DNA from: Clostridiaceae bacterium
GTDB lineage: Bacteria; Bacillota; Clostridia; Acetivibrionales; DTU013
Direction: 5' to 3'
DNA: 24,260 nt
NCBI GenBank assembly: GCA_012799845.1
Contig: JAAZKL010000164.1
Location: 1-24,260 of the forward strand
Shown here: piece after piece, positions 7,156 to 20,436 of the stretch
Position numbering within the stretch: the first letter of the stretch is position 1
Layout: every line of letters starts with the position of its first letter
Made by a program: the position numbers and the translations under genes
Notes under the pieces: generated by a model
What the model was told of the DNA's origin: nothing
The model's input: only the letters and a program-made list of their open reading frames with translations
The model's database searches: none

Positions 7156-10100
7156 ATGAGTTTTATTATTTCAGTACATTTTAAAAACAGTTTTTATGAA
7201 ATTTTTACACCAGGCATAAACAATAGAAAAATTTCCATAGAAATTCCTTCAGACATATCCGGGTTCGCATCCGATTTTCCGCTCTCTTTCGAGGTCTGGA
7301 ACAACAACTGGAGCATATTGGAGAATGAAGCCGTCGTGTTCCTGAAAGGCAACGATTCAAAGAAAACCGTTCCTCTTGAGTCGGGCCTGACGATAAGCTG
7401 CGAACTCCGCCCGACACGTGAGAGATTCTCCCTCATAGTCGAAAAAAGTTATAAAGGATACTCGGATTTCGACAAATACGTATTGAAACAGGGGAAGATC
7501 ACTATAGGCAGCGCTGACGGGAATATGGTCCGGTACAACACCCGCAATCTTGTTTCCGGACATCATGCGGTCCTGGATGTAGGTCCGGACGGCATCTGTA
7601 CGCTTACCGACTCCAGCCGGAACGGCACGTTCGTAAACGGGAAAAGGATATCGGGAAGCTGCAGGCTGAACTACGGTGATGTGGTCTACATAATCGGACT
7701 GAAACTGATCTGTCTGGGGAACGTTATCGCGGTCAACCGTCCATTCGAGCCAGTCAGGCTGACAGGACTGGAATCGTTCGTGCGGGATGCGGAAAGCGGA
7801 CCTCAGCCGGATGCTGATGCCGATGACGGGTATTATCAGCGTTCTCCCCGCCAGATCGAGCCCCTGGACGATGAGACGATCGAGATAGAGGCGCCGCCGA
7901 ACCCGGCCAGGAGCCGCAGGCAGCCGCTGATGTTCACCGTTGGACCGTCCCTGACGATGGTCATCCCAATGGCGGCCGGCGTGCTGTTCACCATATGGAG
8001 CCAGCAGCAATCAAACAGCGGAATGGCCAGCCCGTTTATGTTCATGGGCATCGTAACTTCCGTTACAGCAGCTGTCATAGGAGTATTCTGGGCGCTGACA
8101 AATTACAGGTACAACATGAAGATGGAGCGCGAAGATGAGGCGCGGCGCCGTGACATGTACGGCAAATACCTGGAAAAGATCCGCCGGCTGCTGATTCGTA
8201 AGCACATGTTCAATAAAGAAGTGCTTGATAGGAAATATCCTGAAACGAGAGAGTGCCTGCGCTTTGTTATGGAAAAGAGCCGAAGAGTGTGGGAACGCAA
8301 TGTCAATCATCCTGATTTCCTGACTGTCCGGCTGGGACAGGGACAGATGCCTTCTCCCAATATCATCAGTATTCCTAAGGAAAGGTTCTCTCTCGTGGAC
8401 GACAACCTTGCAGAAGAACCGGCCAACATTAAAAATGAATACGATATACTGAAGGACGTTCCCGTATGCATTTCTCTGACCGAACACAACCTGGTCGGTG
8501 TGATCGGCGAACCGGCTGCAGTATACGGGTATATTCCACAGATCATGGCTGCTCAGATCGCGACCTGCCATTCATATACGGATGTACGCATGGCCTTCAT
8601 CTATAACGAAAAGCACGCCCGCAGCTTTGAATTCGCCAAATGGCTGCCTCACACGTGGAACGAGGACGGCAGTTTCCGCATGATAGCGTGCGACAAAAAC
8701 GGGGTAGGCGAACTGTTCTACAACCTGTCCTCCATGCTGAGGACCCGGCTTGAGGAAAAGGAGGATCCCTCGGAAGCTGTGCGTTCTCTTCCTCACTATG
8801 TTATATTTATCGCGGATCCTTCACTGGTCGAAAATGAGGCTGTCATGAAATATATATCCGCACCGACGGCACAGATGGGAATTACGACAGTACTGCTTTA
8901 TGAACAGATCGACAGGCTGCCGAACAACTGCACCGTGATCATCCAGAGCGATGAGGATTACCGCGGATATTACAGCCTGGACAGCAGTTTTGACGGTTTC
9001 AGCAATGTCATGTTCGATGGCGTGTCCATCGAAGAGCTTGAGGAATACGCCAGGGAAATGTCGAGCATCCGTGTGCGTGAGACTCAGTCCGCGGGCGCCA
9101 TACCGCAGATGCTCACTTTTCTTGATATGTACAAAACTTCGGTGGTCACTGACATCGATATTGAAAGGCGCTGGCTGGAGAACCGCACATATGAGAGCAT
9201 GAGAGCCATGATCGGCTACCGCAGCGCCAATTCTCCGCTGTATCTCGACATACACGAAAAATATCACGGCCCGCACGGCCTTGTCGCCGGCACCACCGGT
9301 TCGGGCAAGTCCGAGACGCTTCAGACCTACATACTGTCGATGGCGCTCAGCTACCATCCTTATGAGGTCTCCTTCATACTGATCGACTATAAGGGCGGCG
9401 GCATGGCAGGGAGCTTTGAGAAGCTGCCTCACGTCGCGGGCATCATCACGAACCTTGGAGGCAACCAGACGAACCGGGCGCTCGCTTCCATCAACAGCGA
9501 AATCAAGCGGCGCCAGACTGTTTTCAACGAATACAAGCTGAAGCATATCGACGGCTATATCGAGCTTTTCCGTGCCGGGAAAGTGTCACAGCCAATGCCT
9601 CACTTACTTATAATCGCCGATGAATTCGCGGAACTGAAAAAGGAACAGCCGGAATTCGTACGTGAACTCGTCAGTGCGTCCCGTGTCGGGCGCAGCCTCG
9701 GAGTCCATCTGATACTGGCGACACAGAAACCTTCCGGCGTGGTGGACGAAGAGATCTGGGGCAACTCCAAATTCCGGCTGTGTCTGCGTGTCCAGGACAA
9801 GCAGGATTCCAACGAGATGATAAGGCGTCCTGACGCGGCGTACATAACAAATGCAGGACGCGGATACTTCCAGGTAGGCAATGACGAGATATTCGAGCAG
9901 TTCCAGTCAGGCTGGAGCGGTGCGAGATATGAGCCGGATATCCCGTACAGCGATGCCGGACAGAGCGACGCAAAAATGATCAACCTCTGGGGCAAGCCCT
10001 GTGTGGTCGGCAGCACGAAGAAGGTATCGAAGCAGGAAGACGGGAAAAAGACGACCCAACTTGAGGCAGTCGTGCAGCATATATGCAGCATTGCCGAGAG

Positions 10101-11808
10101 ACAGGGGATCAGACCTGTCGACAATATCTGGCTTCCGCCGCTGCCCAAAACGCTGTCGCTGCCGCATTTGCAGGAGTATGGAGATGTTGCCTGGAGAGAC
10201 GGCATCTGGCGGGCACCTTCCGGAGAACTGGATCCTGTTGTCGGCCTGATCGATGATCCTGTTAACCAACGCCAGGCAGCACTGTCCGTCAACCTGCTCA
10301 TGGAGGGGCACCTGCTTGTGACAGGTTCGGGTTCGGGAGGAAAGACGACTTTCCTGCAAACGCTTTTATATTCACTTGTCACGACATATTCGCCCAAACA
10401 GCTCAACATATACATAGCCGACTTCGGAAGCCGGACGATGGGAGTATTCTCCTCGCTGCCGCATGTAGGCGGCGTCGTGTATGACAGCGAGACCGACAAG
10501 GCGGACAAGCTGGTCGCGATGCTTCTGAAGGAACTGAGCCGGCGCAGGCATATGTTCTCGGAAAAAGGAATCGGCTCCGTAAGAGAATATGTCCGCCTCT
10601 ATGACGATGTGCCGTTCATAGTTTTTGCCATCGACAACTATGCCGCGTGGAATGAAAGCTGTCCAAAGCAGGAGGACAATCTCATCCTGCTGTCGCGTGA
10701 AGCTGCAAGCTACGGCATATACCTGGTCATCACCTGCTCCAACTCAGGGGACATCCGGGGCAGGATCCGGCAAAACATCAGTTACGGCATCGGCCTGCAG
10801 CTTGCTGACCGGTTTGAGTACGAAGAAGCCATAGGCATGAAGACGGAAATCGTTGCTGAGGACCATACTCCGGGGCGCGGGCTCGTTTGCTGCCCGAAGC
10901 CACTTGAGTTCCAGACAGCGCTGTGCATGGACGTCAACGACCCGGTCACCCTCAATATGAAGCTGAAGGAACAGTTCGAGCAAATGGCGGCCGCATGGAG
11001 TGGAGAGGCAGCTACGGTCATACCGCAGGTGCCGTCCGACCTGTCCCTGGACAATCTCCTGTCGCTGCCCGAGTTCAATGAGGCTGTAAGTTCGCACAGG
11101 TACATCCCGTTCGGGTATGAGCTGTCAATGGCGCAGATTTCAAGCGTCGATCTGGCGAGGACCTTCTGCTATACCATAAGCGGCACGTCGAGAAGCGGAA
11201 AAACCAATCTGCTCAAGGTATACATGAGACTGGCTAAAACGCGGGACGGCAAGATATATGTGTTTGACGGCCCTAACCGCGAACTGGAAGCATATTCACG
11301 CGAAATAAGTGCAGACGGCTACATGACGAAATCCGACGAACTGTTCGATTACATGCAGACGGTCATGGTCCCGGAATTTGCGCGCAGGAACAGGGCAAAA
11401 GCTGAATTTGTAAGGAGCGGGAGCAGGAACGTTGATGAGTATATCGCCTCCGAACAGAAAATCTTCCTGTTCATAAATGACATGAGCGCGTTCTGCGAGG
11501 CGGTTTACGAAAGTGAACGCGATATGAAAGGCTTTATGGAGCAAATGATCGTCCGGGGCGACAATCATATGATCTACCTGTTTGCGTGTGTATCAGTGGC
11601 TGATATGACCGGAGAATACAATTCCAAACGCCTGATGCGCGGATTTGTGGGCTGGAAGGAAGGCATTCACCTGGGAGGCAGGCTGGAAGACCAGAAAGTG
11701 TTCGACTTCGATGTGCCGATACTGCAACGCGGGAAAAAGCTGCCTGCCGGCTATGGGCATATATCTGCTGACGGAGCAACATTGCGTGTCGTTACAGCTA
11801 TTGCATAA
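7156..11808 (+). CDS. essC: Type VII secretion FtsK/SpoIIIE ATPase, EssC/YukB type (N-terminal FHA region, two TM helices, three P-loop domains)
   Basis: FHA motif (ITIGS...VSGHHA...SRNGTFVNG). Two hydrophobic helices (PSLTMVIPMAAGVLF; FMFMGIVTSVTAAVIGVFW). Walker A motifs GTTGSGKS, GSGSGGKT, GTSRSGKT. HGPHGLVAG, IDYKGG, IIADEFAEL and LILATQKP motifs. Adjacent EsaB and WXG100 genes. Confidence 0.95.
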   Translation: MSFIISVHFKNSFYEIFTPGINNRKISIEIPSDISGFASDFPLSFEVWNNNWSILENEAVVFLKGNDSKKTVPLESGLTISCELRPTRERFSLIVEKSYKGYSDFDKYVLKQGKITIGSADGNMVRYNTRNLVSGHHAVLDVGPDGICTLTDSSRNGTFVNGKRISGSCRLNYGDVVYIIGLKLICLGNVIAVNRPFEPVRLTGLESFVRDAESGPQPDADADDGYYQRSPRQIEPLDDETIEIEAPPNPARSRRQPLMFTVGPSLTMVIPMAAGVLFTIWSQQQSNSGMASPFMFMGIVTSVTAAVIGVFWALTNYRYNMKMEREDEARRRDMYGKYLEKIRRLLIRKHMFNKEVLDRKYPETRECLRFVMEKSRRVWERNVNHPDFLTVRLGQGQMPSPNIISIPKERFSLVDDNLAEEPANIKNEYDILKDVPVCISLTEHNLVGVIGEPAAVYGYIPQIMAAQIATCHSYTDVRMAFIYNEKHARSFEFAKWLPHTWNEDGSFRMIACDKNGVGELFYNLSSMLRTRLEEKEDPSEAVRSLPHYVIFIADPSLVENEAVMKYISAPTAQMGITTVLLYEQIDRLPNNCTVIIQSDEDYRGYYSLDSSFDGFSNVMFDGVSIEELEEYAREMSSIRVRETQSAGAIPQMLTFLDMYKTSVVTDIDIERRWLENRTYESMRAMIGYRSANSPLYLDIHEKYHGPHGLVAGTTGSGKSETLQTYILSMALSYHPYEVSFILIDYKGGGMAGSFEKLPHVAGIITNLGGNQTNRALASINSEIKRRQTVFNEYKLKHIDGYIELFRAGKVSQPMPHLLIIADEFAELKKEQPEFVRELVSASRVGRSLGVHLILATQKPSGVVDEEIWGNSKFRLCLRVQDKQDSNEMIRRPDAAYITNAGRGYFQVGNDEIFEQFQSGWSGARYEPDIPYSDAGQSDAKMINLWGKPCVVGSTKKVSKQEDGKKTTQLEAVVQHICSIAERQGIRPVDNIWLPPLPKTLSLPHLQEYGDVAWRDGIWRAPSGELDPVVGLIDDPVNQRQAALSVNLLMEGHLLVTGSGSGGKTTFLQTLLYSLVTTYSPKQLNIYIADFGSRTMGVFSSLPHVGGVVYDSETDKADKLVAMLLKELSRRRHMFSEKGIGSVREYVRLYDDVPFIVFAIDNYAAWNESCPKQEDNLILLSREAASYGIYLVITCSNSGDIRGRIRQNISYGIGLQLADRFEYEEAIGMKTEIVAEDHTPGRGLVCCPKPLEFQTALCMDVNDPVTLNMKLKEQFEQMAAAWSGEAATVIPQVPSDLSLDNLLSLPEFNEAVSSHRYIPFGYELSMAQISSVDLARTFCYTISGTSRSGKTNLLKVYMRLAKTRDGKIYVFDGPNRELEAYSREISADGYMTKSDELFDYMQTVMVPEFARRNRAKAEFVRSGSRNVDEYIASEQKIFLFINDMSAFCEAVYESERDMKGFMEQMIVRGDNHMIYLFACVSVADMTGEYNSKRLMRGFVGWKEGIHLGGRLEDQKVFDFDVPILQRGKKLPAGYGHISADGATLRVVTAIA

Positions 11809-11861: not shown

Positions 11862-12599
11862 ATGCTAAGCATAATCGTGTTGGACACAATGCATGACGAA
11901 GAACCCAATATATCGGATATACTTGAGGAGGCGTATTCAAAACGCGACCTGCCTGTCAAACGGCTTGCCGTTTTCAGGGAACCTGCGCCCCTGTTTGGAT
12001 TTGCGGAGGAGCAGTCGGACAGGTTCAATGTTTTCATAGCATCATTTTCCTGGCTCCGGGATGAGTACATGGAACTGGCGCAAAATCTCAGGAGGCGCAG
12101 GAAAAACCTGTTTATAGTATTCGTGGTCGGCAGGAATGTGGACATATCATGCTGCGTGCGGCCGTCAGTGAGGCCCTCCGGCATACTGTTCATCCCCCTG
12201 GAGAAGCAGCGGATCTATCAAACGCTCAGCGAGATCTACGTTGAACTGCTGAGATCGGCCGAACGCGGGGAACAGCCTGTGTTCACCATCAGGTGCGGCG
12301 GCGAATACTACACCATCGATACTGAAGATATATTCTTCTTTGAGGCGCAGGGCAAAAAAATCGCTGCCAAAACACGCAGCCAGGAGATCGCTTTTTATTC
12401 GAACTTCGAAGCTGTGCTGGAGCAGCTTCCCGAATGGTTTGTGAGGTGCCATAAGGGGTTTGTGGTGAATACGAAGCAGATCGTCCAGGCAAGTTTTACT
12501 GAAATGACGCTGACATTGAAGGACAGGTCGGTGGTCCCGATATCGCGGACATACCGTGACGAGATCAGGACGATCGTCGAGTCGAAAGGGGCTGTATGA
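11862..12599 (+). CDS. LytTR-family DNA-binding regulator with atypical (pseudo-)receiver domain
   Basis: The C-terminal LytTR signature is IFFFEAQGKK...FVRCHKGFVVN...VPISRTY. The N-terminal about 120 aa has receiver-like spacing but lacks the phospho-Asp (FIASF), Thr/Ser (VFVVG) and Lys-Pro (LFIP) residues. Confidence 0.85.
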   Translation: MLSIIVLDTMHDEEPNISDILEEAYSKRDLPVKRLAVFREPAPLFGFAEEQSDRFNVFIASFSWLRDEYMELAQNLRRRRKNLFIVFVVGRNVDISCCVRPSVRPSGILFIPLEKQRIYQTLSEIYVELLRSAERGEQPVFTIRCGGEYYTIDTEDIFFFEAQGKKIAAKTRSQEIAFYSNFEAVLEQLPEWFVRCHKGFVVNTKQIVQASFTEMTLTLKDRSVVPISRTYRDEIRTIVESKGAV

Positions 12600-13090
12600 T
12601 GGAGGGACTGAAAGCATCATTCATACTTACAAGGCCTGAAATGCTCTTCCTGCTGAACAGTGCTGCCGGCACTACTCCCTCTGGTCCGATGGAGCATTTA
12701 CTGAGCAAGTGCTTCTCCAGCGCAACAGTGTCGGAGGAAACTGTCGGAGGGCTCGCGGACAAGGGACTGATCACGAAAACACCGGATAAGGTCTCGCTGG
12801 AGCCTGTGATCGGGCTGCTGGCGCGTTCTGCGATGACAGCCGGGAAGCTGTGGATCGTCAACGAAGGCGCCGAAGATAAGATGATGATACTGAGATCCGA
12901 TGAAATGTACCTGCACATAAAGAGATATCCGCTGATCGCTGACTCATGGCGCATCGCGCCGTACAGGACAGCGTCCGGGCTGCATGACGAGTTCGGGGGC
13001 ATCGCTGTCAGGAATGTAAGGATCATTGGTCAGCAGGGTGAAGAAGCTTTTATTGAATCACCGAACGATTTTGCATGGCTGGAGGTTTGA
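12596..13090 (+). CDS. Hypothetical protein in the T7SS operon, possibly EspG/EsaE-like chaperone
   Basis: ATGA overlap with the LytTR stop, followed closely by esaB. The N-terminal pattern LTRPEMLFLL...GLADKGLI...LEPVIGLLAR resembles EspG-family N-termini by eye only. Confidence 0.6.
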   Translation: MMEGLKASFILTRPEMLFLLNSAAGTTPSGPMEHLLSKCFSSATVSEETVGGLADKGLITKTPDKVSLEPVIGLLARSAMTAGKLWIVNEGAEDKMMILRSDEMYLHIKRYPLIADSWRIAPYRTASGLHDEFGGIAVRNVRIIGQQGEEAFIESPNDFAWLEV

Positions 13091-13095
13091 TTTGA

Positions 13096-13350
13096 ATGGC
13101 AAAAATCTATATCGATGTGAGCACGCCGGGTAACGGCAAGGTATATGAGTTCCGTCTCGACAACTCCATGACGGTCGGCCAGGTCAAGGCCAGGATGATC
13201 GAGGAAATAACCGAATTCGAGAATGGGAACATTACTCTCGATCCTGAAAAGATCATACTCTGCAACCAGGATACCCGGACAATGCTGCCGGAATCCCAGA
13301 CACTGAGGCAGTCGGGAGTCAGGAGCGGGCACAGGCTGCTGCTTGTGTGA
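13096..13350 (+). CDS. esaB: EsaB/YukD-family ubiquitin-like T7SS protein
   Basis: 84 aa with a beta-grasp pattern (IYIDVS...VYEFRLDNSMTVGQVK...TLRQSGVRSGHRLLLV), RBS GGAGG, located in the essC operon. Confidence 0.85.
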   Translation: MAKIYIDVSTPGNGKVYEFRLDNSMTVGQVKARMIEEITEFENGNITLDPEKIILCNQDTRTMLPESQTLRQSGVRSGHRLLLV

Positions 13351-13455
13351 CATATGCCCGTCCACCCATGCCGGTGAAATGCCGCTCTGACATTCTGGCC
13401 AATTTTTTTGAGTACTGCAATTCATTCCAAAAAACATGCAGGTTGTCAGAATCTA

Positions 13456-13484
13456 TTGAAATGGTATGAGAAAGCAAGTAAGCT
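13456..13484 (+). promoter_or_regulatory. Possible internal promoter for the WXG100/effector genes
   Basis: TTGAAA (13456-13461), 17 nt, TAAGCT (13479-13484) in a 165-nt intergenic gap ahead of RBS GGAGGTG. Confidence 0.45.
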
Positions 13485-13515
13485 ATATACAGAAAGCAAA
13501 CGGAGGTGACAGGCC

Positions 13516-13827
13516 ATGCCGGATTTCAGGTCAACGGATGTGGACAGCAGACAGATCGAAAATACAGCCGCCAGTCTGGACGAAGACATTAAGGCGTTGT
13601 CATCTGTATGCACTTTCATCCGGAACGATGTGATGGCGAACCTGGACCCTTACTGGGAGGGACAGGCAAAGCAAAGTTTCGAGCAGCGGTTCACCCGGTT
13701 TGCAGAGGCCCTGGTAAAGCTCGTTGACGAATACAGGGTGCTCAACGACCTGCTGAAGAGAGCCGGTGATACGTATGGCAAGGCAGACGATTCGGTAAGG
13801 AACACAATTGCGAAGCTGCCAAGGTAG
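13516..13827 (+). CDS. WXG100 family protein 1
   Basis: 103 aa helical protein with central W-E-G and C-terminal YGKAD (YxxxD/E). RBS GGAGGTG. Confidence 0.9.
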   Translation: MPDFRSTDVDSRQIENTAASLDEDIKALSSVCTFIRNDVMANLDPYWEGQAKQSFEQRFTRFAEALVKLVDEYRVLNDLLKRAGDTYGKADDSVRNTIAKLPR

Positions 13828-13838
13828 GGGGTGTTGGT

Positions 13839-14222
13839 ATGGCCGGGAAAAAGAATATGAAAATGCCGGATCCTGCTGTGGGAGCTGCATTGATTACTTT
13901 GCGCCAGGATTTTATAAAATTTGACCCGGAAAAGATCATGGAGGTTTCGACCGGGCTTGAACAGCAGCACAAGAAATTCACCCAGGCTGCCGCAACGATA
14001 AAGAGGCGGGCTGAAAGCCTGATGGCAAGCTGGAAGAGCGACAGCGCCGATTTATACATGAAGAAGATCGGGGAACTGGATGCACAGAGCAATGAAATTG
14101 CCGGTGAATTGCTCTCATTAAGCCAGGACCTGGCCAAAGCATCCGGGATCTACAAGACCGGCGAATCGGAAGCGAAGAAGAAAGCAGAAGCGTTGCCTAC
14201 TGAAGGCGTGTTTCTCGTATAG
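13839..14222 (+). CDS. WXG100-like protein 2 (WKS variant)
   Basis: IKFDPEKI...SWKSDSA...YKTGE...LPTEGVF. Paralogous to 15033-15353. The start codon is uncertain (13839 or 13857). Confidence 0.85.
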   Translation: MAGKKNMKMPDPAVGAALITLRQDFIKFDPEKIMEVSTGLEQQHKKFTQAAATIKRRAESLMASWKSDSADLYMKKIGELDAQSNEIAGELLSLSQDLAKASGIYKTGESEAKKKAEALPTEGVFLV

Positions 14223-14243
14223 TGAGGGACGGTGAGTGCGAAT

Positions 14244-14642
14244 ATGGCGATAATGAATTTCAACTATAACCAGGCAATCAGGCAGGCGGACCAAATCGAT
14301 TCCGCGGCAGGCGAATTGCTGAACACGGCGAACAGGCAGCTCCAGACGACGCTGGAATCCGTTGCCGCCTGCTGGAATGGCGATGCCTCGGCGCAGTTCA
14401 TCAGCTACTGCAGGACTGTCCAGGAAGATATCCGAAGAGAGGCGGGAAAACTCCAGGACCTGGCCCGCCGGATAAGGCAGGTTGCCAGGATCATCAGGGA
14501 AGCTGAAGAAAGGGCAAGAGAACTTCAGCGGCAGAGGGAAGCCGCAGCCGCTGCAGCAGCTGCTGCCGCCGCAGAGCAAAAAGGGAACTTTTCATCGGGA
14601 GGCGGCAGCTTCAGCGGTGGCGGCGGCGGTGGCTCATTCTGA
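14244..14642 (+). CDS. WXG100 family protein 3 with poly-Ala and Gly-rich C-terminal extension
   Basis: Central W-N-G, tail A11-EQKGNFSSGGGSFSGGGGGGSF. ATG 14244 is preferred over GTG 14232 on RBS spacing (GGTGAG at 14231-14236). Confidence 0.85.
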   Translation: MAIMNFNYNQAIRQADQIDSAAGELLNTANRQLQTTLESVAACWNGDASAQFISYCRTVQEDIRREAGKLQDLARRIRQVARIIREAEERARELQRQREAAAAAAAAAAAEQKGNFSSGGGSFSGGGGGGSF

Positions 14643-14707
14643 CAGGAGTTTGATATCATCTCATATTTCATATATCAGAATCCATATTTCTTAAGGAGGG
14701 AATTTCA

Positions 14708-15010
14708 ATGGCAGGAACTGAAGTTTTAACCGGGCGATTGATCGATGTCGCCAAAAACCTTGAGGACATAATCGGACGTTACAATACGACTGTCAACAAG
14801 GTTTACCAGATCGGAGGAGAAATCGATGCAATGTGGGATGGTCCGGCCAGCAATAAATTCGTGTCCATCCTCGGCAACGACAGGGAACGCTTCAATGCTC
14901 TTGCGAAAATGCTCAATGCATATGTCGAGACGCTCCGCAGGGACGCAGCCATCTATGCGAAAGCTGAGAGCGACGCTCTCGATATCCTGAACACGAACAA
15001 AATCCGATAA
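14708..15010 (+). CDS. WXG100 family protein 4
   Basis: 100 aa with central W-D-G, C-terminal YAKAE and RBS AAGGAGG. Confidence 0.9.
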   Translation: MAGTEVLTGRLIDVAKNLEDIIGRYNTTVNKVYQIGGEIDAMWDGPASNKFVSILGNDRERFNALAKMLNAYVETLRRDAAIYAKAESDALDILNTNKIR

Positions 15011-15032
15011 TCTATGAAAGGAGTCGTACATA

Positions 15033-15353
15033 ATGGATATCATATTAAAAGTACAGCCTGATGTTCTTCTCTCCAAATCCGGAGAGCTATCCAACGAAAA
15101 GAACACCATCATCAGCCTCATGGACCAGGCAAAAAGCGAGATCAACTCCCTGACCGGCGTTTGGAAGAGCGAGGCTTCGGATGAATTCCAGGCCAGGTTC
15201 AAACAGGTATACGACGACATAGACAATATGCTCGCTATCGTTTCCGAGTATATCAGTGACCTCAACGAGGTCGCCAATGTCTATACCACAGCGGAAAAAG
15301 CTGCAAAGAGCGCAGCGGAAGGACTTCCGACCGACGGTGTTTTCAGAGTTTGA
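15033..15353 (+). CDS. WXG100-like protein 5 (WKS variant)
   Basis: ILKVQPDVL...VWKSEAS...YTTAE...LPTDGVF, with RBS AAAGGAG. Confidence 0.9.
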   Translation: MDIILKVQPDVLLSKSGELSNEKNTIISLMDQAKSEINSLTGVWKSEASDEFQARFKQVYDDIDNMLAIVSEYISDLNEVANVYTTAEKAAKSAAEGLPTDGVFRV

Positions 15354-15359
15354 ATTCAA

Positions 15360-15403
15360 GTATACCCGGTACATCCGGGAAACGCCGGATATGCCGGGTA
15401 TAC
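15360..15403 (+). other. Long near-perfect intergenic hairpin without U-tract
   Basis: GTATACCCGG-TAC-ATCCGG / loop GAAACG / CCGGAT-ATG-CCGGGTATAC: 19 paired positions with one mismatch and one G-U. Confidence 0.75.
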
Positions 15404-15420
15404 AGTAACCAAGGTGCATA

Positions 15421-15852
15421 ATGATGCAGTATATCAAGTTTAACTGTTATGATCTGGCGGCACAAAATGCCGAACTGCAAAACATTCACAACAGGATCCG
15501 GAGATTGTCCGACGAACTGGCAGGTGTTTTGAATGCGCTGGATCCCCAGATCAGGAGTTACGAAAATCTTCAGCAGCAATTACTGGCGGTCCGGAATGAG
15601 ACTGCTGAGACCAGTGTGCGCATTTTAAGGGCTTGCAGCGCGCTTGACCGGATAATAGACATTTATTACGCGGCAGAAAGCAAAGTAAAGCAATCGGCCG
15701 AGGAACTGCCGGCCAGCACTGTCGGAACATCGGGCCGCCCGGCCGGCAGCACGGTAAAGATAGAAACATCCTCGATAAGCAGGGGTGACCTGGTTTTGGA
15801 AGATTGGATCGCGGAACTTTTGTATAAGGAAGACAACAACAGGAAGGGGTGA
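15421..15852 (+). CDS. WXG100-like helical protein 6 (no WxG motif); probable effector-targeting partner
   Basis: Helical heptad pattern, YYAAE motif, Ser/Thr/Gly linker and C-terminal LVLEDWIAELLY segment. Its stop overlaps the next start (GTGA). Confidence 0.75.
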   Translation: MMQYIKFNCYDLAAQNAELQNIHNRIRRLSDELAGVLNALDPQIRSYENLQQQLLAVRNETAETSVRILRACSALDRIIDIYYAAESKVKQSAEELPASTVGTSGRPAGSTVKIETSSISRGDLVLEDWIAELLYKEDNNRKG

Positions 15853-17132
15853 GCGTTGTGGCCAGGTATTCTATAAAATACAATGAACTGAAGAATCACG
15901 CAGTGGCATTGCAAAACATCGGCAAAACGCTTGCCTCGTTCGAGAACCGTTTATATTCGATAACTGCTTCCATGGACACAAGGGACAGCAGTATGGAATC
16001 ACTGAAGAGGCAAATACTCGCTGCCGGCAAAAACCTGCCGGTGATCAGCGGGAAATTGGCTTCGGCGGGCACAGCGGCGGAAAACATTTCGAATATATAC
16101 TCGTTGGCCGAAAAATACAGTTACAGCAGTTTCGAAAACTCAGTGCCGTGGGCTGCAGCCCAGGCATTACCGGCGGTTACCGGCCAGGCACAAAGTGTAT
16201 TTGATCCGGCAGCTTCCGGCGCAGGTTTTCCGGGAGTAGCGGCAGGTTCTGCGGGAGTAGCAGCAGCAGGTTCTGCATCACTGCTCGGGGAGCATCTTGA
16301 TGAGGACACCGCTGTCAACAGTATACTTAATCCGTTCGGCCTGTCCAAAGTCGAATATGGCAAATACGACGATAAGAAAAAGTTCAAGGAGATTGAACAG
16401 GAGGACAGGACATTCTGGCAGCAAGCCTATGAAAGGGATACCGGCCAAATGGTAATTCCTGACCTGGCACCGAAAAACGCCAGGAAACTGGCAACGATCT
16501 ACAGTGTAGGGACAGAAGCAAAGGCTGAGTACGCATGGCGTGAATACAAGGCTTCCGGCAAAACCGACTGGGCGGAAGGAAGCGCAGAATTAAAAGTCGC
16601 GGCAGCAGAGGCGCACGCTGAACTTTCTGCCGGCCTTTACGTGTTTGATAAAAACGGAAACAAGAGGTTTGCACCGGGGGTTGAGGCGGCAGTAGGCGCC
16701 AGTTTCTCTGCCCTGGCCGCGTCGGCGGAGGGAAAAATCGGCAATGACATGCTGGGTGCATTCGGCGAAGCCGAACTGGAAATAGCAAAAGCCGAAGCGG
16801 AAGGCAAGTTGAAGCTTTCGCTGTTCGACAAGGATGGCAAACTGGACATCGATGCACATGCGGAAGCCAGCCTTGAAGCAGTTGCTTTTGAAGTTGGAGG
16901 GAAGGCCGGAGTATCTGTTCTCGGTACAGATGTCGCGGTCAAAGGCGAGTTTAAGGTCGGTGTCGGAGTACATGCGGAAGTCGGATATGCTGACGGCGTA
17001 TTCAAGTTCGATGTTGGAGCTTCTTTGGGAATTGGCGCAAGTATCGGCTTCGAGGTCGATGTTTCCGGTACTGTCGACGCGATCTGCAGCAAAGCCGAGG
17101 CAGCATGGGATGCTATAAAAGGATGGTTCTGA
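15849..17132 (+). CDS. Candidate T7SS-secreted effector: N-terminal WXG100-like helical domain, Ala/Gly linker, Gly/Ala/Val-rich C-terminal domain
   Basis: The N-terminal about 95 aa is helical with YSLAE, followed by a low-complexity linker. The C-terminal half has alternating small/hydrophobic residues and an internal repeat ending FDK[ND]G. Followed by a small membrane protein and DUF4176. Confidence 0.75.
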   Translation: MSVVARYSIKYNELKNHAVALQNIGKTLASFENRLYSITASMDTRDSSMESLKRQILAAGKNLPVISGKLASAGTAAENISNIYSLAEKYSYSSFENSVPWAAAQALPAVTGQAQSVFDPAASGAGFPGVAAGSAGVAAAGSASLLGEHLDEDTAVNSILNPFGLSKVEYGKYDDKKKFKEIEQEDRTFWQQAYERDTGQMVIPDLAPKNARKLATIYSVGTEAKAEYAWREYKASGKTDWAEGSAELKVAAAEAHAELSAGLYVFDKNGNKRFAPGVEAAVGASFSALAASAEGKIGNDMLGAFGEAELEIAKAEAEGKLKLSLFDKDGKLDIDAHAEASLEAVAFEVGGKAGVSVLGTDVAVKGEFKVGVGVHAEVGYADGVFKFDVGASLGIGASIGFEVDVSGTVDAICSKAEAAWDAIKGWF

Positions 17133-17149
17133 CAGGAGGATAGTATCTG

Positions 17150-17587
17150 ATGGAACAATTGGTAATTGGCGGAGTGTTTTTGTTCTCTGCGGTTATTTTC
17201 ATAGTAACGGCAGTCTTGTATTGGAGATCAGAAAAAAAGTTTCGCAGGGACTGTGTACGGTGTAAAGCCATTGTCGTTGACTATGTCGTGCAGGATTACT
17301 CACGGTGGCAGACTCCCAGGGTGGCGCTTGAGGGAGAAGGCCGGAGACTGGCTTACCGCTGCAAATCAAGACGCATGAATTCCGAGGTCTGTCCGAGGGG
17401 AACGCAGGTAACGGTAGATTATAGTGTCAAAAAGTTTCTGGGCATGGATTTTTATGACATCCGCATCGTCGACCCTCCCCAGTTTGCAGCAGAACCTGCA
17501 AAGACGGTCATTATAATGCTTGGCGTGATGACGCTTATTAGCCTTATCATATCGGCCGCGCTTATTGCAGCCGGAATTAGGGGATAG
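17150..17587 (+). CDS. Two-TM membrane protein (DUF3592-like); candidate immunity protein
   Basis: Hydrophobic helices at both ends (LVIGGVFLFSAVIFIVTAVLYW; VIIMLGVMTLISLIISAALI) flank a soluble beta-type segment (KAIVVDY...GTQVTVDY). RBS AGGAGG, 17 nt after the effector stop. Confidence 0.7.
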   Translation: MEQLVIGGVFLFSAVIFIVTAVLYWRSEKKFRRDCVRCKAIVVDYVVQDYSRWQTPRVALEGEGRRLAYRCKSRRMNSEVCPRGTQVTVDYSVKKFLGMDFYDIRIVDPPQFAAEPAKTVIIMLGVMTLISLIISAALIAAGIRG

Positions 17588-17640
17588 AGATATTTTGACC
17601 TGTATGAAATAGCTGACACTAATTTTAAGGAGGATTGACT

Positions 17641-17958
17641 ATGTTTAATGGTCTCTTACCGATCGGTTCAGTAGTCTTGCTGAAAAACAGCACCAAAAGG
17701 GTTATGATCATTGGCTTCTGCCAAAAAGAGATCAATGATAATGAAGAAGCGAAAATTTGGGATTATGCTGGCTGCCTGTATCCAGAAGGCTACCTGGGAC
17801 CCAATCAGACATTCCTGTTCAATGGCGACCAGATAGAACGCATTTTTGCCATTGGGTACCAGGATGAAGAGCAGTTTGAGTTCAAGAAAAAGGCCGACTC
17901 TGTGATCGAGCAACTGAGGAAGAAGTCTGCCGGTCAGCAGGAAGAACAGCCACAGTAA
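17641..17958 (+). CDS. DUF4176 family protein
   Basis: LLPIGSVVLLK...VMIIG...WDYAGCLYPEG...FLFNGDQIERIFAIGYQDEE is the recognisable DUF4176 pattern. AAGGAGG supports ATG 17641. Confidence 0.9.
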   Translation: MFNGLLPIGSVVLLKNSTKRVMIIGFCQKEINDNEEAKIWDYAGCLYPEGYLGPNQTFLFNGDQIERIFAIGYQDEEQFEFKKKADSVIEQLRKKSAGQQEEQPQ

Positions 17959-18022
17959 AAGCAGAAGAGTCAGAGGGCCGGTCATGAAGCTTTGCCTGGT
18001 TTCCGTAAAGTGCCCATTCAGT

Positions 18023-18104
18023 ACAGGTACAGTACAATATTGACCCCAGGAACAAGTCCTGCCCAGTTTAGGCATATTCCTGCTGATCCGGGTACTGTAC
18101 CTGT
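18023..18104. repeat. Long inverted repeat / nested hairpin in the convergent intergenic region
   Basis: ACAGGTACAGTAC (18023-18035) is the exact reverse complement of GTACTGTACCTGT (18092-18104). Inner CAGGAA/TTCCTG and TGCC/GGCA stems are also present. Confidence 0.7.
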
Positions 18105-18234
18105 TTGGATTGCTGCAATGCACCTGTGGATCCAGGTGTGGTTTCAGGACTGCCCCTTATCTCCGTATTTACCTCATGGTTTCGCATCAAGGCATGATAA
18201 CTTTGCCTCATGACAACATTACTTCACGACAGCT

Positions 18235-18450
18235 TTACTTAAGCACTTCGAATCCAAGGGCAGTTACGGCCTTTTCCACGTCCTGGACCGATACTTTTTG
18301 CTCATCATAATCAAATTTCACCTTGCTTGCGTTGAACAGCACCCTAACGCTCTCTTTAACTACTCCGTCCAGGGATTTTACCGCGTTTTCGACCTTTTGC
18401 ACACAGGTTGGGCAGGTCAGTGTTTCCAATTGGATAGTTGCATTTTTCAT
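18235..18450 (-). CDS. CopZ-like heavy-metal-associated (HMA) domain protein
   Basis: 71 aa with LTCPTC (CxxC) and the HMA pattern ending ALGFEV. RBS AAAGGAG. Confidence 0.9.
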   Translation of the reverse strand: MKNATIQLETLTCPTCVQKVENAVKSLDGVVKESVRVLFNASKVKFDYDEQKVSVQDVEKAVTALGFEVLK

Positions 18451-18492
18451 ATTTCTGGTCTCCTTTCAGAACCGTTTTATATGGTTATCTTT

Positions 18493-18524
18493 ATTCTATC
18501 TGCATAGCTATGCTCTGCATAGCT
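18493..18524 (-). promoter_or_regulatory. Candidate operator and promoter upstream of the HMA gene
   Basis: Perfect 12-bp palindrome GCATAGCTATGC (18502-18513), 11-bp direct repeat TCTGCATAGCT (18499-18509, 18514-18524), and minus-strand TAGAAT at 18493-18498. Confidence 0.4.
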
Positions 18525-18561
18525 TTACTTTATCATTTTAAAAATATCATGCATATGTCCT

Positions 18562-20436
18562 TTATTTCGTTTCATCCGAACTGCGGTTCCTAAGCTTGTA
18601 GCGCAGCAGCCTCATGCCATTCAGGATGACCGCCAGGATGCTGCCTTCGTGCACGAGCATGCCGATGGACATGTTCATCCAATTGCTGAAAAATACGCCG
18701 GCAAGCAGGAACAATACCACACCGACAGCGATGGATATATTTTGCTTCATATTTCCGGCTGTGGCTTTTGCCAGGCCGAGCGCATGGGGCAGGCGGCCAA
18801 AGTCCGAATTCATGAGCACCACGTCGGAGGTCTCTATGGCGACGTCTGTACCGGCACCCATGGCGATACCTGTATCAGCCAGCGCCAGGGACGGGCTGTC
18901 ATTTACGCCGTCACCGACGAAAGCGACGATCCGGCCCTCTTCGATCAATTTCCTGATATACGCGGCCTTATCCTGCGGCAGCATGTTGCCATGGGCTTCG
19001 CTCAGGCCCAGTTCGCGGCTCACAGTGTTCACTGTGCCCTGGTTGTCGCCTGACAGCATCACGAGATTCCTGATGCCAAGTTTTTTAAGCTTATAAAGGT
19101 TTTCCTTCACCCCGGGGCGTACCTGGTCACGCACCCCCATCAGGATCTTTAGTTCTCCGTCCACGGCAGTCAGTACGAGCGAGTTCCCGTTTTTCTCAAA
19201 ACGGGCAATGTCGGCTTTTGCCTTCGTGTCAAGCTTTATGCCTTCTCTTTCCATAAGGGCGGCATTGCCGACGGCGACCATGTGTCCATCCACGCTTGCA
19301 ATGATACCGCTGCCTTTGACCACTTCCGTGTTTTCGACAGGGCGTAGCTCTGTTTCGCCGATCTCGTCCAGAACCGCTTTGGCCAGCGGATGGCCGGACT
19401 CGCGCTCCACGCTTGCGAGATACATCAGCGCCTTATCAGTATCATTCCCGTAGTACGCCTTTTCAGCCACTGATGGATTTCCCGCGGTCAGTGTTCCTGT
19501 TTTGTCGAACACGATCGTATCTGTCCTGCTGAACTCGTTTATCACCTCGCTGCCTTTGAACAGGATGCCGTGGCGCGCTCCGTTCCCTATGCCTGCTACG
19601 TTGGATACGGGGACGCCAATCACCAGGGCGCCGGGGCAGCCGAGGACAAGGATCGTGACTGACAACTCGATGTCCCGGGTGATCAAAAGAACCAGCGCAC
19701 CGAGAACAAGAACTGCCGGAGTGTAATATTTTGCAAAGCGGTCGATGAACCTTTCCGCCTTTGACCTGGAATCCTGTGCTTCCTCCACCAGTTCGATGAT
19801 CTTTGCGAATGTGGTGTCTTCACCCACACGGTCTGCTGTTATCCGGAGAGTTCCGCTTTCAAGGATCGTACCGGCAAATACCTTTGTTCCTTCGCTTTTC
19901 AGTACGGGAAGGGACTCTCCGGTAATGGCGGCTTCATTGACACTGCCTTCCCCGGATAAAACGGTTCCGTCGACCGGTATTTTGGCACCGGTTCTCACCA
20001 GCAGTATATCACCTGTATCCACTTCACTGATGCCGACCTCATCGAATCCACCATCCGGCATTTGTTTCAGGGCATTTTCCGGCGCCATTTCCGTGAGTTC
20101 CTTAATGGCTGACCGTGTTTTGTTCAGCGTACGCTGCTCCAGGTATGCGCCAAAAAGGAACAGGAATGTCACGATGGCAGATTCTTCAAAGTTCCTGATG
20201 AAAAATGCGCCGATCACAGCAATGGTCACCAGCAGATCGATGCTGACGACCTTTACTCTCAGTGCCTGGTACGCCTGGATAGCGATCGGCGCGGCGCCAA
20301 GGACTGAAGCGATTATGAAGGCTGTGTCAGCCGCCGTTCCATTCCTGAAAACCAGTGCGCTGATAAACCCGATGACTATCAGGATCGCACTGACCAACGC
20401 TGCCTGGTTTTTCCTGCTGAGTATGAACCGCTGCAT
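18562..20436 (-). CDS. P1B-type heavy-metal-translocating ATPase without N-terminal metal-binding domain
   Basis: TGES, GCPGALVIGVP, DKTGTLT, SGHP, GDGVNDSP and HEGS motifs. RBS GGGAGG. Confidence 0.95.
   Translation of the reverse strand: MQRFILSRKNQAALVSAILIVIGFISALVFRNGTAADTAFIIASVLGAAPIAIQAYQALRVKVVSIDLLVTIAVIGAFFIRNFEESAIVTFLFLFGAYLEQRTLNKTRSAIKELTEMAPENALKQMPDGGFDEVGISEVDTGDILLVRTGAKIPVDGTVLSGEGSVNEAAITGESLPVLKSEGTKVFAGTILESGTLRITADRVGEDTTFAKIIELVEEAQDSRSKAERFIDRFAKYYTPAVLVLGALVLLITRDIELSVTILVLGCPGALVIGVPVSNVAGIGNGARHGILFKGSEVINEFSRTDTIVFDKTGTLTAGNPSVAEKAYYGNDTDKALMYLASVERESGHPLAKAVLDEIGETELRPVENTEVVKGSGIIASVDGHMVAVGNAALMEREGIKLDTKAKADIARFEKNGNSLVLTAVDGELKILMGVRDQVRPGVKENLYKLKKLGIRNLVMLSGDNQGTVNTVSRELGLSEAHGNMLPQDKAAYIRKLIEEGRIVAFVGDGVNDSPSLALADTGIAMGAGTDVAIETSDVVLMNSDFGRLPHALGLAKATAGNMKQNISIAVGVVLFLLAGVFFSNWMNMSIGMLVHEGSILAVILNGMRLLRYKLRNRSSDETK

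Follow-up and report, generated by a model that had tools for sequence, protein, structure and literature searches.

A type VII secretion-associated protein with an unnamed C-terminal beta domain, a candidate membrane-inserting toxin of an anaerobic-digester bacterium

To our knowledge, the characterized membrane-acting toxins of type VIIb secretion systems (T7SSb), namely TspA, TelD, TelE, and EsxX, are all helical. Here, we describe a candidate effector of another build, encoded at 15849-17132 in a 24,260-nucleotide stretch of DNA (the window; assembly GCA_012799845.1, contig JAAZKL010000164.1, positions 1 to 24,260) from a Clostridiaceae bacterium, where type VII secretion system (T7SS) genes lie upstream and genes for a two-transmembrane-helix (two-TM) protein and a small DUF4176 protein lie downstream. 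In described systems, DUF4176 proteins are toxin-specific chaperones, the small ones of which adjoin the membrane immunity genes of membrane-depolarizing toxins (PMC12478183), and members of the family stabilize both the pore-forming TelE (10.64898/2026.03.12.711312) and a TspA-like toxin (PMC12482557). Our analysis supports the description of the window's protein as T7SS associated, with an export-type head, a confidently modeled but unnamed beta domain in the cargo position, and an obligate DUF4176 neighbor in Bacillota. The kind of system, a T7SS effector cassette with a chaperone, is known, while the payload is unnamed and uncharacterized. A first-pass annotation of the window, made from the sequence alone, had proposed a new T7SS toxin that acts on membranes, possibly by forming beta pores or fibers. 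On balance, we find it somewhat probable that the protein is a T7SS-exported, membrane-inserting toxin that comes with an immunity protein and a chaperone, although membrane or pore activity is what we infer from sequence and model only. The gene and the parts of its product are as follows:

15849-17132, + strand: effector gene, 427 amino acids (aa) as listed, 424 aa from the probable GTG start at 15858
15879-16121, + strand: N-terminal helix-turn-helix head with a WXG100/EsxA-like fold (residues 11-91; AlphaFold2 [AF2] predicted local distance difference test score [pLDDT] 78-91)
16098-16112, + strand: YSLAE, which conforms to the [YF]xxx[ED] T7SS-type export motif (residues 84-88)
16140-16502, + strand: disordered linker (residues 98-218; AF2 pLDDT <50)
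16221-16276, + strand: 21-nt tandem repeat in the linker (2.5 copies, 85% matches, Tandem Repeats Finder score 71)
16503-17060, + strand: all-beta C-terminal domain (residues 219-404; seven antiparallel strands in a meander, each of 20-28 residues)
16926-17060, + strand: terminal amphipathic, glycine-rich hairpin, candidate membrane-inserting element (residues 360-404)
17064-17126, + strand: C-terminal amphipathic helix with a W-F end (residues 406-426), conserved in the consensus of both 66 and 147 sequences

An AF2 model built from 66 homologues shows a three-part protein: a helical head, a disordered linker, and a C-terminal all-beta domain with a terminal helix. The beta domain was also modeled on its own from 147 sequences, with a mean pLDDT of 86, a predicted template modeling score of 0.71, and strands that measure 21-28 residues. 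Two repeats at residues 244-298 and 306-354, spaced by 62 aa, each form one long beta-hairpin of the model; they share 40% identity over 55 residues (E 1e-6 in a single comparison), and BLAST found no third sequence-level repeat in the domain. In family-averaged hydrophobicity, strands 2-5 are amphipathic by halves, with a phase change in midstrand. The last hairpin (residues 360-404) is strictly alternating, with V/F/I/L on one face and G/S/K/E/D/H on the other, as in the membrane-inserting hairpins of beta pore-forming toxins. Specifically, each of its strands carries 10-11 hydrophobic residues on one face, and the family-averaged beta hydrophobic moments of 2.1 and 2.6 compare with 0.45-0.52 for shuffled sequences, 0 of 2000 shuffles being as high. 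As modeled, then, this is an amphipathic, glycine-rich beta-hairpin that would be able to span a bilayer, the feature that marks beta pore-forming toxins. The last strand presents a flat Gly/Ser face. Across the 147 sequences, Myxococcota and Actinomycetota members included, G371, G394, and G396 are invariant; G359, G373, G390, and D404 are invariant too in the closer set of 66 sequences, and H375, D382, D388, E402, and D404 are conserved at >=90%. Otherwise, the domain is mostly composed of A, G, E, V, and K. The first-pass annotation had read an amphipathic, beta-type C-terminal region with two repeats 62 aa apart and a glycine-rich end that runs into an amphipathic helix, and the models, the beta-moment analysis, the repeat comparison, and the translation agree with it on each count.

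Searches did not attach this domain to anything described. There were no Pfam, NCBIfam, or PDB matches to it, nor Pfam or NCBIfam matches to the domain in the 66 homologues; the Swiss-Prot AFDB and viral BFVD libraries held no match, and the literature yielded no named family, structure, or publication describing it. Foldseek searches of the PDB with the full and domain-only models returned nothing at E 0.001 or better. The top nonsignificant rows for the domain, MACPF/perforin pore states, were discarded at a template modeling score (TM-score) of <0.1, and feature-based ESM Atlas matches, which scored <0.9, were disregarded. In a Foldseek-independent structure search, nearly all of the top neighbors were transmembrane beta-barrels (TonB-dependent receptors, autotransporter beta-domains, porins, and Omp85) at Z 8-10. 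Their root mean square deviation (rmsd) was 8-12 Å, and the model therefore resembles a curved segment of barrel wall rather than any particular family. Likewise, no part of the effector matched Pfam or NCBIfam, so that the protein matches no recognized nuclease, deaminase, lipase, or NADase family, in keeping with the absence of such motifs from the initial reading.

While the payload is without a described relative, the head is familiar in structure. It aligned with EsxA (3zbh) at a VIA Z of 10.4 and an rmsd of 1.4 Å over 88 residues, and with EsxA/EsxB at Foldseek TM-scores (by target) of 0.73-0.85; a sequence-profile search of the PDB gave coiled-coil and EsxB-type matches only, all of them to the head. 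The head thus has the helix-turn-helix hairpin of about 100 aa that defines the WXG100 superfamily (PF06013) without its W-x-G, which is absent from residues 1-100. PF06013 did not match the effector at E up to 0.01 or residues 1-110 at E up to 5, and its matches were weak and found in only 2 of the 66 homologues. Nor is the head an LXG domain (PF04740), since it measures only about 90 aa against about 200 aa, contains no LxG, and has no Pfam or NCBIfam match. The first-pass annotation was correct that both WxG and LxG are missing and that YSLAE is present. This pentapeptide follows the second helix, the place of the YxxxD/E motif in T7SS substrates, and belongs to a family-conserved [YF]xxx[ED], with Y/F in 61 of 66 homologues and E/D in 61 of 66, in heads that are otherwise variable. 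Behind the head, the linker is conserved from about residue 167 onward in many homologues, not all; BLAST alignments of most homologues begin at residues 166-170, and the others at residues 213-245. The duplication GVAAGSA/GVAAAGSA that had been noticed in the linker is encoded by a genuine 21-nt tandem repeat.

The start of the gene deserves one correction. A ribosome-binding site, AGGAAGGGG, ends at 15849, about 8 nt 5' of an in-frame GTG at 15858, and the BLAST alignments of the effector's two closest homologues start at query residue 4. Because of this spacing and the start point of the two nearest homologues, translation probably begins at GTG 15858 and yields 424 aa. The open reading frame (ORF) first listed, 15849-17132, therefore holds for its translation of 427 aa, in which all of the quoted motifs are present, but less well for its start. 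A protein identical to the effector is recorded in 209 contigs, and DNA identical to the window's comes from anaerobic-digester, biogas, sludge, and manure samples.

Two genes follow the effector, and a convergent P-type ATPase gene beyond them closes the unit:

17150-17587, + strand: two-TM protein, candidate immunity protein (145 aa; one transmembrane helix at each end)
17635-17958, + strand: small DUF4176 protein (107 aa; PF13780, E 4.7e-30) of the Ltc/Lcp family of T7SSb toxin chaperones

We surveyed the neighborhoods of 37 Bacillota loci from different species, 35 of which include downstream DNA. In all 35, the effector gene has a DUF4176 gene no more than about 1 kb downstream. Like chaperoned T7SSb toxins, the effector thus has a cognate DUF4176 gene in the same operon. 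The two-TM protein is less constant. The positive-inside rule predicts that its central domain, some 95 aa long, is cytoplasmic; the protein belongs to no Pfam family and has no DUF443 match even at E up to 5. Between loci, its identity is 19-25%, compared with 57-66% for DUF4176 between distant loci. About 17 of the 37 loci have the arrangement of the window (effector, two-TM protein, DUF4176). In a second arrangement, one or two DUF4176 genes come after the effector, often with the gene of a protein of about 510 aa next, and there is no obvious immunity gene. The prediction that a membrane protein would be the next gene is accordingly right for the window and for only about half of the related loci, and this neighbor therefore lends weaker support to a toxin than the first-pass annotation assumed. 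In a complex prediction of toxin residues 160-427 with DUF4176, the model left the toxin chain unfolded (pLDDT 33-34), which counts neither for nor against binding.

The surroundings of these genes hold two further observations. The protein of about 510 aa (L022:5874-7406, L024:5967-7523, and L034:4941-6482) has a conserved architecture of a VWA domain, a transmembrane segment, and a C-terminal FHA domain, and it may belong to the T7SS apparatus of Lachnospiraceae-type loci or to its regulation. Genomes of the same genus and the same family have, beside the cytoplasmic DUF4176, another copy with an N-terminal signal peptide and lipobox (LTGC, LAGC; L075:992-1438 and L076:973-1416, both - strand); such a surface-anchored DUF4176 could be an extracellular immunity factor for the beta-domain protein.

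Whether the cassette is core or cargo was addressed in relatives of the host. The initial domain profile underdetects divergent members and gave no same-genus match at first. Since it missed same-genus proteins that hhalign later linked to the family, tallies made with it are lower bounds. In three of four other EssC-positive genomes of the taxonomic family, DUF4176 is preceded by a protein of 347-362 aa with a helical head and beta-hairpin repeats, and hhalign joined one of these proteins to the family at 96% probability (E 4.6e-9). The EssC-positive genome G484, which is 100% complete, has no DUF4176 and no domain-profile match anywhere, which makes the cassette accessory rather than universal. 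In another genome, G499, the gene next but two after the effector has the same head (39% identity over 114 aa, E 4e-19) and an unrelated C-terminus, the pattern of variable C-termini on one head that the first-pass annotation had suggested looking for in related loci. The product of this head-sharing gene (L078:4509-5540, - strand; 343 aa) contains a Cys...His pair in its C-terminal domain, for which Pfam, NCBIfam, and the PDB gave no match.

Beyond these relatives, the domain profile finds 1203 representative clusters at E <=0.001 and 367 at <=1e-30. The word "new" in the original proposal is therefore apt in that the domain is unnamed and uncharacterized, but the protein is a member of a large existing family, whose source names are "hypothetical protein" throughout. 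The domain is always C-terminal, with a median tail of 1 aa beyond it and preceding heads of 0-655 aa. Close relatives come from metagenome-assembled genomes (MAGs) of Clostridia, many of them from animal gut or rumen (Oscillospiraceae, Acutalibacteraceae, Lachnospiraceae, Blautia, and Hungatella), and distant full-length domain homologues from Myxococcota and Actinomycetota. T7SS context was not seen at the one Myxococcota locus examined. Sequence searches confirm WXG100-like heads (among them those in Herbiconiux and a Propionibacteriaceae MAG) as well as PF21725 T7SS_signal, LysM, and lipase heads. The WXG100-headed gene of Herbiconiux adjoins an EccC-type ATPase. After it, in place of DUF4176 and two-TM genes, comes a gene for an LpqN-like lipoprotein (L049:5468-5989), which may be the actinobacterial partner or immunity protein. 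Among Bacillota, two members of about 870 aa (P0099, encoded at L010:3031-5670, and P0104) have an N-terminal Mbeg1-like/phospholipase-like hydrolase before the beta domain; a search for the identity of the middle region of a lipase-fused member found none. Because the two-TM and DUF4176 genes are still found downstream, these lipase-fused members may be double-warhead, membrane-directed effectors. In addition, predicted-structure searches found LXG, PAAR, VgrG, and Rhs-core proteins to carry this fold C-terminally, which counts in favor of a toxin; sequence-level searches for PAAR or Rhs fusions of the domain found none. A possible name for the domain would be Ntox38, described as all-beta, actinobacterial, and WXG linked (Zhang et al. 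2012); no Ntox model matched the Herbiconiux homologue.

The association with a T7SS comes from the genes upstream, all on the strand of the effector:

7156-11808, + strand: T7SS motor, an EssC-type FtsK/SpoIIIE ATPase that includes an FHA domain
11862-12599, + strand: LytTR-domain protein
12596-13090, + strand: 164-aa protein with a homologue in syntenic locus L013
13096-13350, + strand: YukD/EsaB ubiquitin-like T7SS protein (PF08817, E 3.9e-8)
13516-13827, 13839-14222, 14232-14642, 14708-15010, and 15033-15353, + strand: five WXG100-like genes (PF06013/TIGR03930 matches)
15421-15852, + strand: 143-aa helical protein; its stop overlaps the effector start as listed

With EssC, YukD, and five WXG100-like genes, the locus bears out the proposal of a T7SS-linked effector. 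ABC transporter genes precede the T7SS locus in the window, and among the ORFs scanned from there to the WXG100 array, none matched the EssA, EssB, or EsaA families. WXG100-like arrays stand 5' of the effector in many related loci, where the effector usually comes right after the array, and synteny between locus L013 and the window begins at the 164-aa gene. The 143-aa protein, which has a homologue in that locus as well, weakly resembles the effector head (phmmer 5e-4 and 9e-5) and is probably its partner. Unusually for an Esx-type protein, one of the WXG100-like proteins (14232-14642) ends in 11 consecutive alanines and then a Gly/Ser-rich tail. Metatranscriptome contigs that are >=99% identical over the cassette were present in four runs from four studies. 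One such contig of 5.1 kb spans 13547-18600, and depth rises near 13520, at the start of the first WXG100 gene; this coverage fits transcription as one unit, with DNA carry-over possible. At window position 14575, three of the metatranscriptome runs have C where the window has A, most likely strain variation. Elsewhere in the window, a GGDEF-EAL gene is apparently split, with ORF 1390-2229 holding GGDEF and EAL profile positions 9-58 and the overlapping ORF 2226-2816 holding EAL positions 68-236, which suggests a frameshift, a pseudogene, or an assembly error.

If the effector is an antibacterial, membrane-inserting toxin exported by a T7SSb, its parts could act in the following manner. The WXG100-fold head with its [YF]xxx[ED] would pair, probably with the 143-aa protein and the WXG100-like proteins, for recognition by EssC. 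The disordered linker would connect this head to the payload, which is modeled as a sheet of seven long beta-strands followed by the glycine-rich amphipathic hairpin and the amphipathic helix. In the producer, by analogy with TelA, TelB, TelE, and the TspA-like toxin, the small DUF4176 protein would keep the hydrophobic or aggregation-prone part soluble before export. Once outside, judging from sequence and model, the terminal hairpin may insert into the cytoplasmic membrane of a neighboring cell, where several copies would probably form a beta-barrel-like pore and dissipate the membrane potential. The two-TM protein, with its domain on the cytoplasmic face, would protect the producer and its kin, as its position and fast divergence suggest.

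A number of observations weigh against this interpretation. About half of the related loci are without a two-TM gene, same-genus loci have no obvious immunity gene, and the VWA-TM-FHA protein after DUF4176 looks like part of a secretion apparatus. The barrel-like structural matches show only a long-strand meander held in common, seven strands are too few to close a barrel alone, and no solved or characterized relative of the domain was found in the structure and sequence libraries. The links to LXG, PAAR, VgrG, and Rhs proteins come from predicted structures only, and the divergent members with DUF4176 in three of four EssC-positive relatives resemble a near-core substrate. Because many loci are without an immunity candidate, the chief rival is a conserved substrate that does not kill: a helper exported with DUF4176 that serves as a translocator pore for other effectors, or as a surface or cell-wall-spanning element. 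Such a role would suit the DUF4176 gene found in every informative locus, the usual position directly after the WXG100 array inside T7SS clusters, the many loci that continue with the VWA-TM-FHA protein instead of an immunity candidate, and the divergent members among the host's relatives. Furthermore, the second same-head effector of G499 fits a helper-plus-toxin arrangement, and it has been speculated that chaperone-bound regions of T7SS toxins serve membrane translocation (PMC12478183). Yet a strictly C-terminal domain behind variable heads behaves like toxin cargo, its predicted-structure relatives occupy the C-termini of PAAR, VgrG, and Rhs proteins where toxins usually sit, and some members are fused to a lipase. 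A helper would also leave unexplained the fast-evolving membrane protein that comes next in about half of the loci, the possession of EssC without DUF4176 in G484, and the Myxococcota homologues outside a T7SS context at the locus examined. We regard a nontoxic helper as rather unlikely.

Less probable still is a toxin with a target other than the membrane, in which the beta domain would act enzymatically or bind a target in the envelope or the cytoplasm, with His375 and the acidic residues functional and the amphipathic elements used for entry only. The conservation of H375, D382, D388, E402, and D404 could be read in this way, as could the predicted cytoplasmic location of the central domain of the two-TM protein, and Ltc-type chaperones, the large ones, also serve cytoplasm-acting toxins (PMC12478183), which likewise detracts from a membrane target. 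However, no enzyme family or fold was matched in any library searched, the model puts the conserved polar residues on the exposed side of long strands rather than in anything like a pocket, and A, G, E, V, and K dominate the composition; we consider this alternative improbable. The least probable is the extracellular fiber that the first-pass annotation offered beside a pore, an amyloid-like assembly of exported monomers whose long, Gly/Ala-rich strands would stack into filaments or into aggregates on the surface in the manner of the CdzC/D bacteriocins, which have been cited as glycine-zipper aggregating toxins (PMC10434224). The strands are indeed long, repetitive, and rich in Ala and Gly, and the last one has a flat Gly/Ser face. 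Nevertheless, the monomer is confidently modeled as a closed meander sheet, and no filament or amyloid structure appeared among the top 50 structural matches. With nothing specific in its support, we think a fiber very unlikely.

Returning to a membrane-inserting toxin, a broader claim can be made, which we put forward as conceivable without thinking it probable. The domain would be the first beta-type, barrel-forming module for membrane permeabilization in a T7SS, an ancient cargo common to T7SSb, actinobacterial T7SS, and, through the predicted structures of PAAR, VgrG, and Rhs proteins, type VI secretion systems (T6SS), with its own DUF4176 holdase to block insertion in the producer. In a bolder variant, other T7SSb toxins may cross the target membrane through a pore formed by the domain, a pore that has long been sought. 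The family is frequent among the T7SS loci of Clostridia from gut, rumen, and digesters and offers a concrete candidate for a new toxin mechanism or translocator. It would also give a client to the small DUF4176 subfamily, whose role was left open in PMC12478183. As the host is a bacterium from anaerobic digesters that has not been cultured, the family is of interest for mechanism and ecology.

Among described systems, TelE of Streptococcus gallolyticus, with LcpE (DUF4176) and TipE, provides an instructive comparison. It is a T7SSb effector that likewise carries a glycine-rich motif near its C-terminus, which in TelE is needed for membrane damage (PMC10434224; 10.64898/2026.03.12.711312); its middle and C-terminal parts are stabilized by a DUF4176 protein, a family that is also present in the window's cassette, and small helical partner genes lie upstream. 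However, the head of TelE is a true LXG domain and its C-terminal domain is helical, in contrast to the short hairpin of WXG100 type and the all-beta payload of the window's protein. The immunity protein of TelE is a soluble DUF5085 protein, a family not found among the cassette genes at 13096-17958. TelE was rejected as a match to the effector on account of its helical payload. A group formed by TspA/TsaI, TelD, and LXG1-CT3/Imm3 of S. suis shares the order of toxin, membrane immunity protein, and small DUF4176 (PMC7456083, PMC12482557, PMC12478183), along with the membrane as presumed target. These toxins carry transmembrane helices and are paired with multipass DUF443 immunity proteins, as opposed to a beta domain and an unrelated two-TM protein here; the effector cassette has neither the helical membrane-inserting domain nor the DUF443 immunity protein that mark the TspA/TelD type. 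With TelA/LtcA and TelB/LtcB of Streptococcus intermedius, the window shares a DUF4176 chaperone, on which its effector would depend as TelA and TelB do, and a disordered region between head and payload (PMC12478183). In the window, though, DUF4176 is small, lies downstream, and is tied to the payload family whatever the head. More generally, the gene order fits that of LXG polymorphic toxins, with a variable C-terminal domain, a candidate immunity gene, and helical genes upstream, though only about half of the related loci have the two-TM gene. Two pore formers of other kinds were considered and rejected: the T6SS proteins VasX/Tke5 (BTH_I2691), which have no NCBIfam or Pfam match here and differ by a MIX motif, a large helical region, and a colicin-like transmembrane domain (PMC13133200), and Tox-WTIP, the sole pore former of Zhang et al. 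2012, which has two transmembrane helices.

For the individual parts of the protein, the comparisons lie elsewhere. The head is like EsxA/EsxB in its helix-turn-helix fold and YxxxD/E-type motif and differs from them by the missing WxG and PF06013 match and by an extension of 330 aa. For the payload, the beta pore-forming toxins, such as staphylococcal alpha-hemolysin and the aerolysin family, serve as a working analogy. They share a glycine-rich, strictly alternating hairpin on a soluble beta scaffold, but have no sequence or significant fold match to the effector domain. Beta pore-forming toxins are Sec exported and mostly act on eukaryotic cells. The nearest parallel for the domain itself is found in proteins of Actinomycetota annotated as putative T7SS-secreted, which have a PF21725 T7SS_signal or WXG100 head. 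These proteins are without DUF4176, and their strands are richer in glycine. Even so, their C-terminal domain is homologous over nearly the whole length of the profile, and their genes, like that of the window's effector, have a T7SS ATPase, in their case of the EccC type, and WXG100 genes as neighbors.

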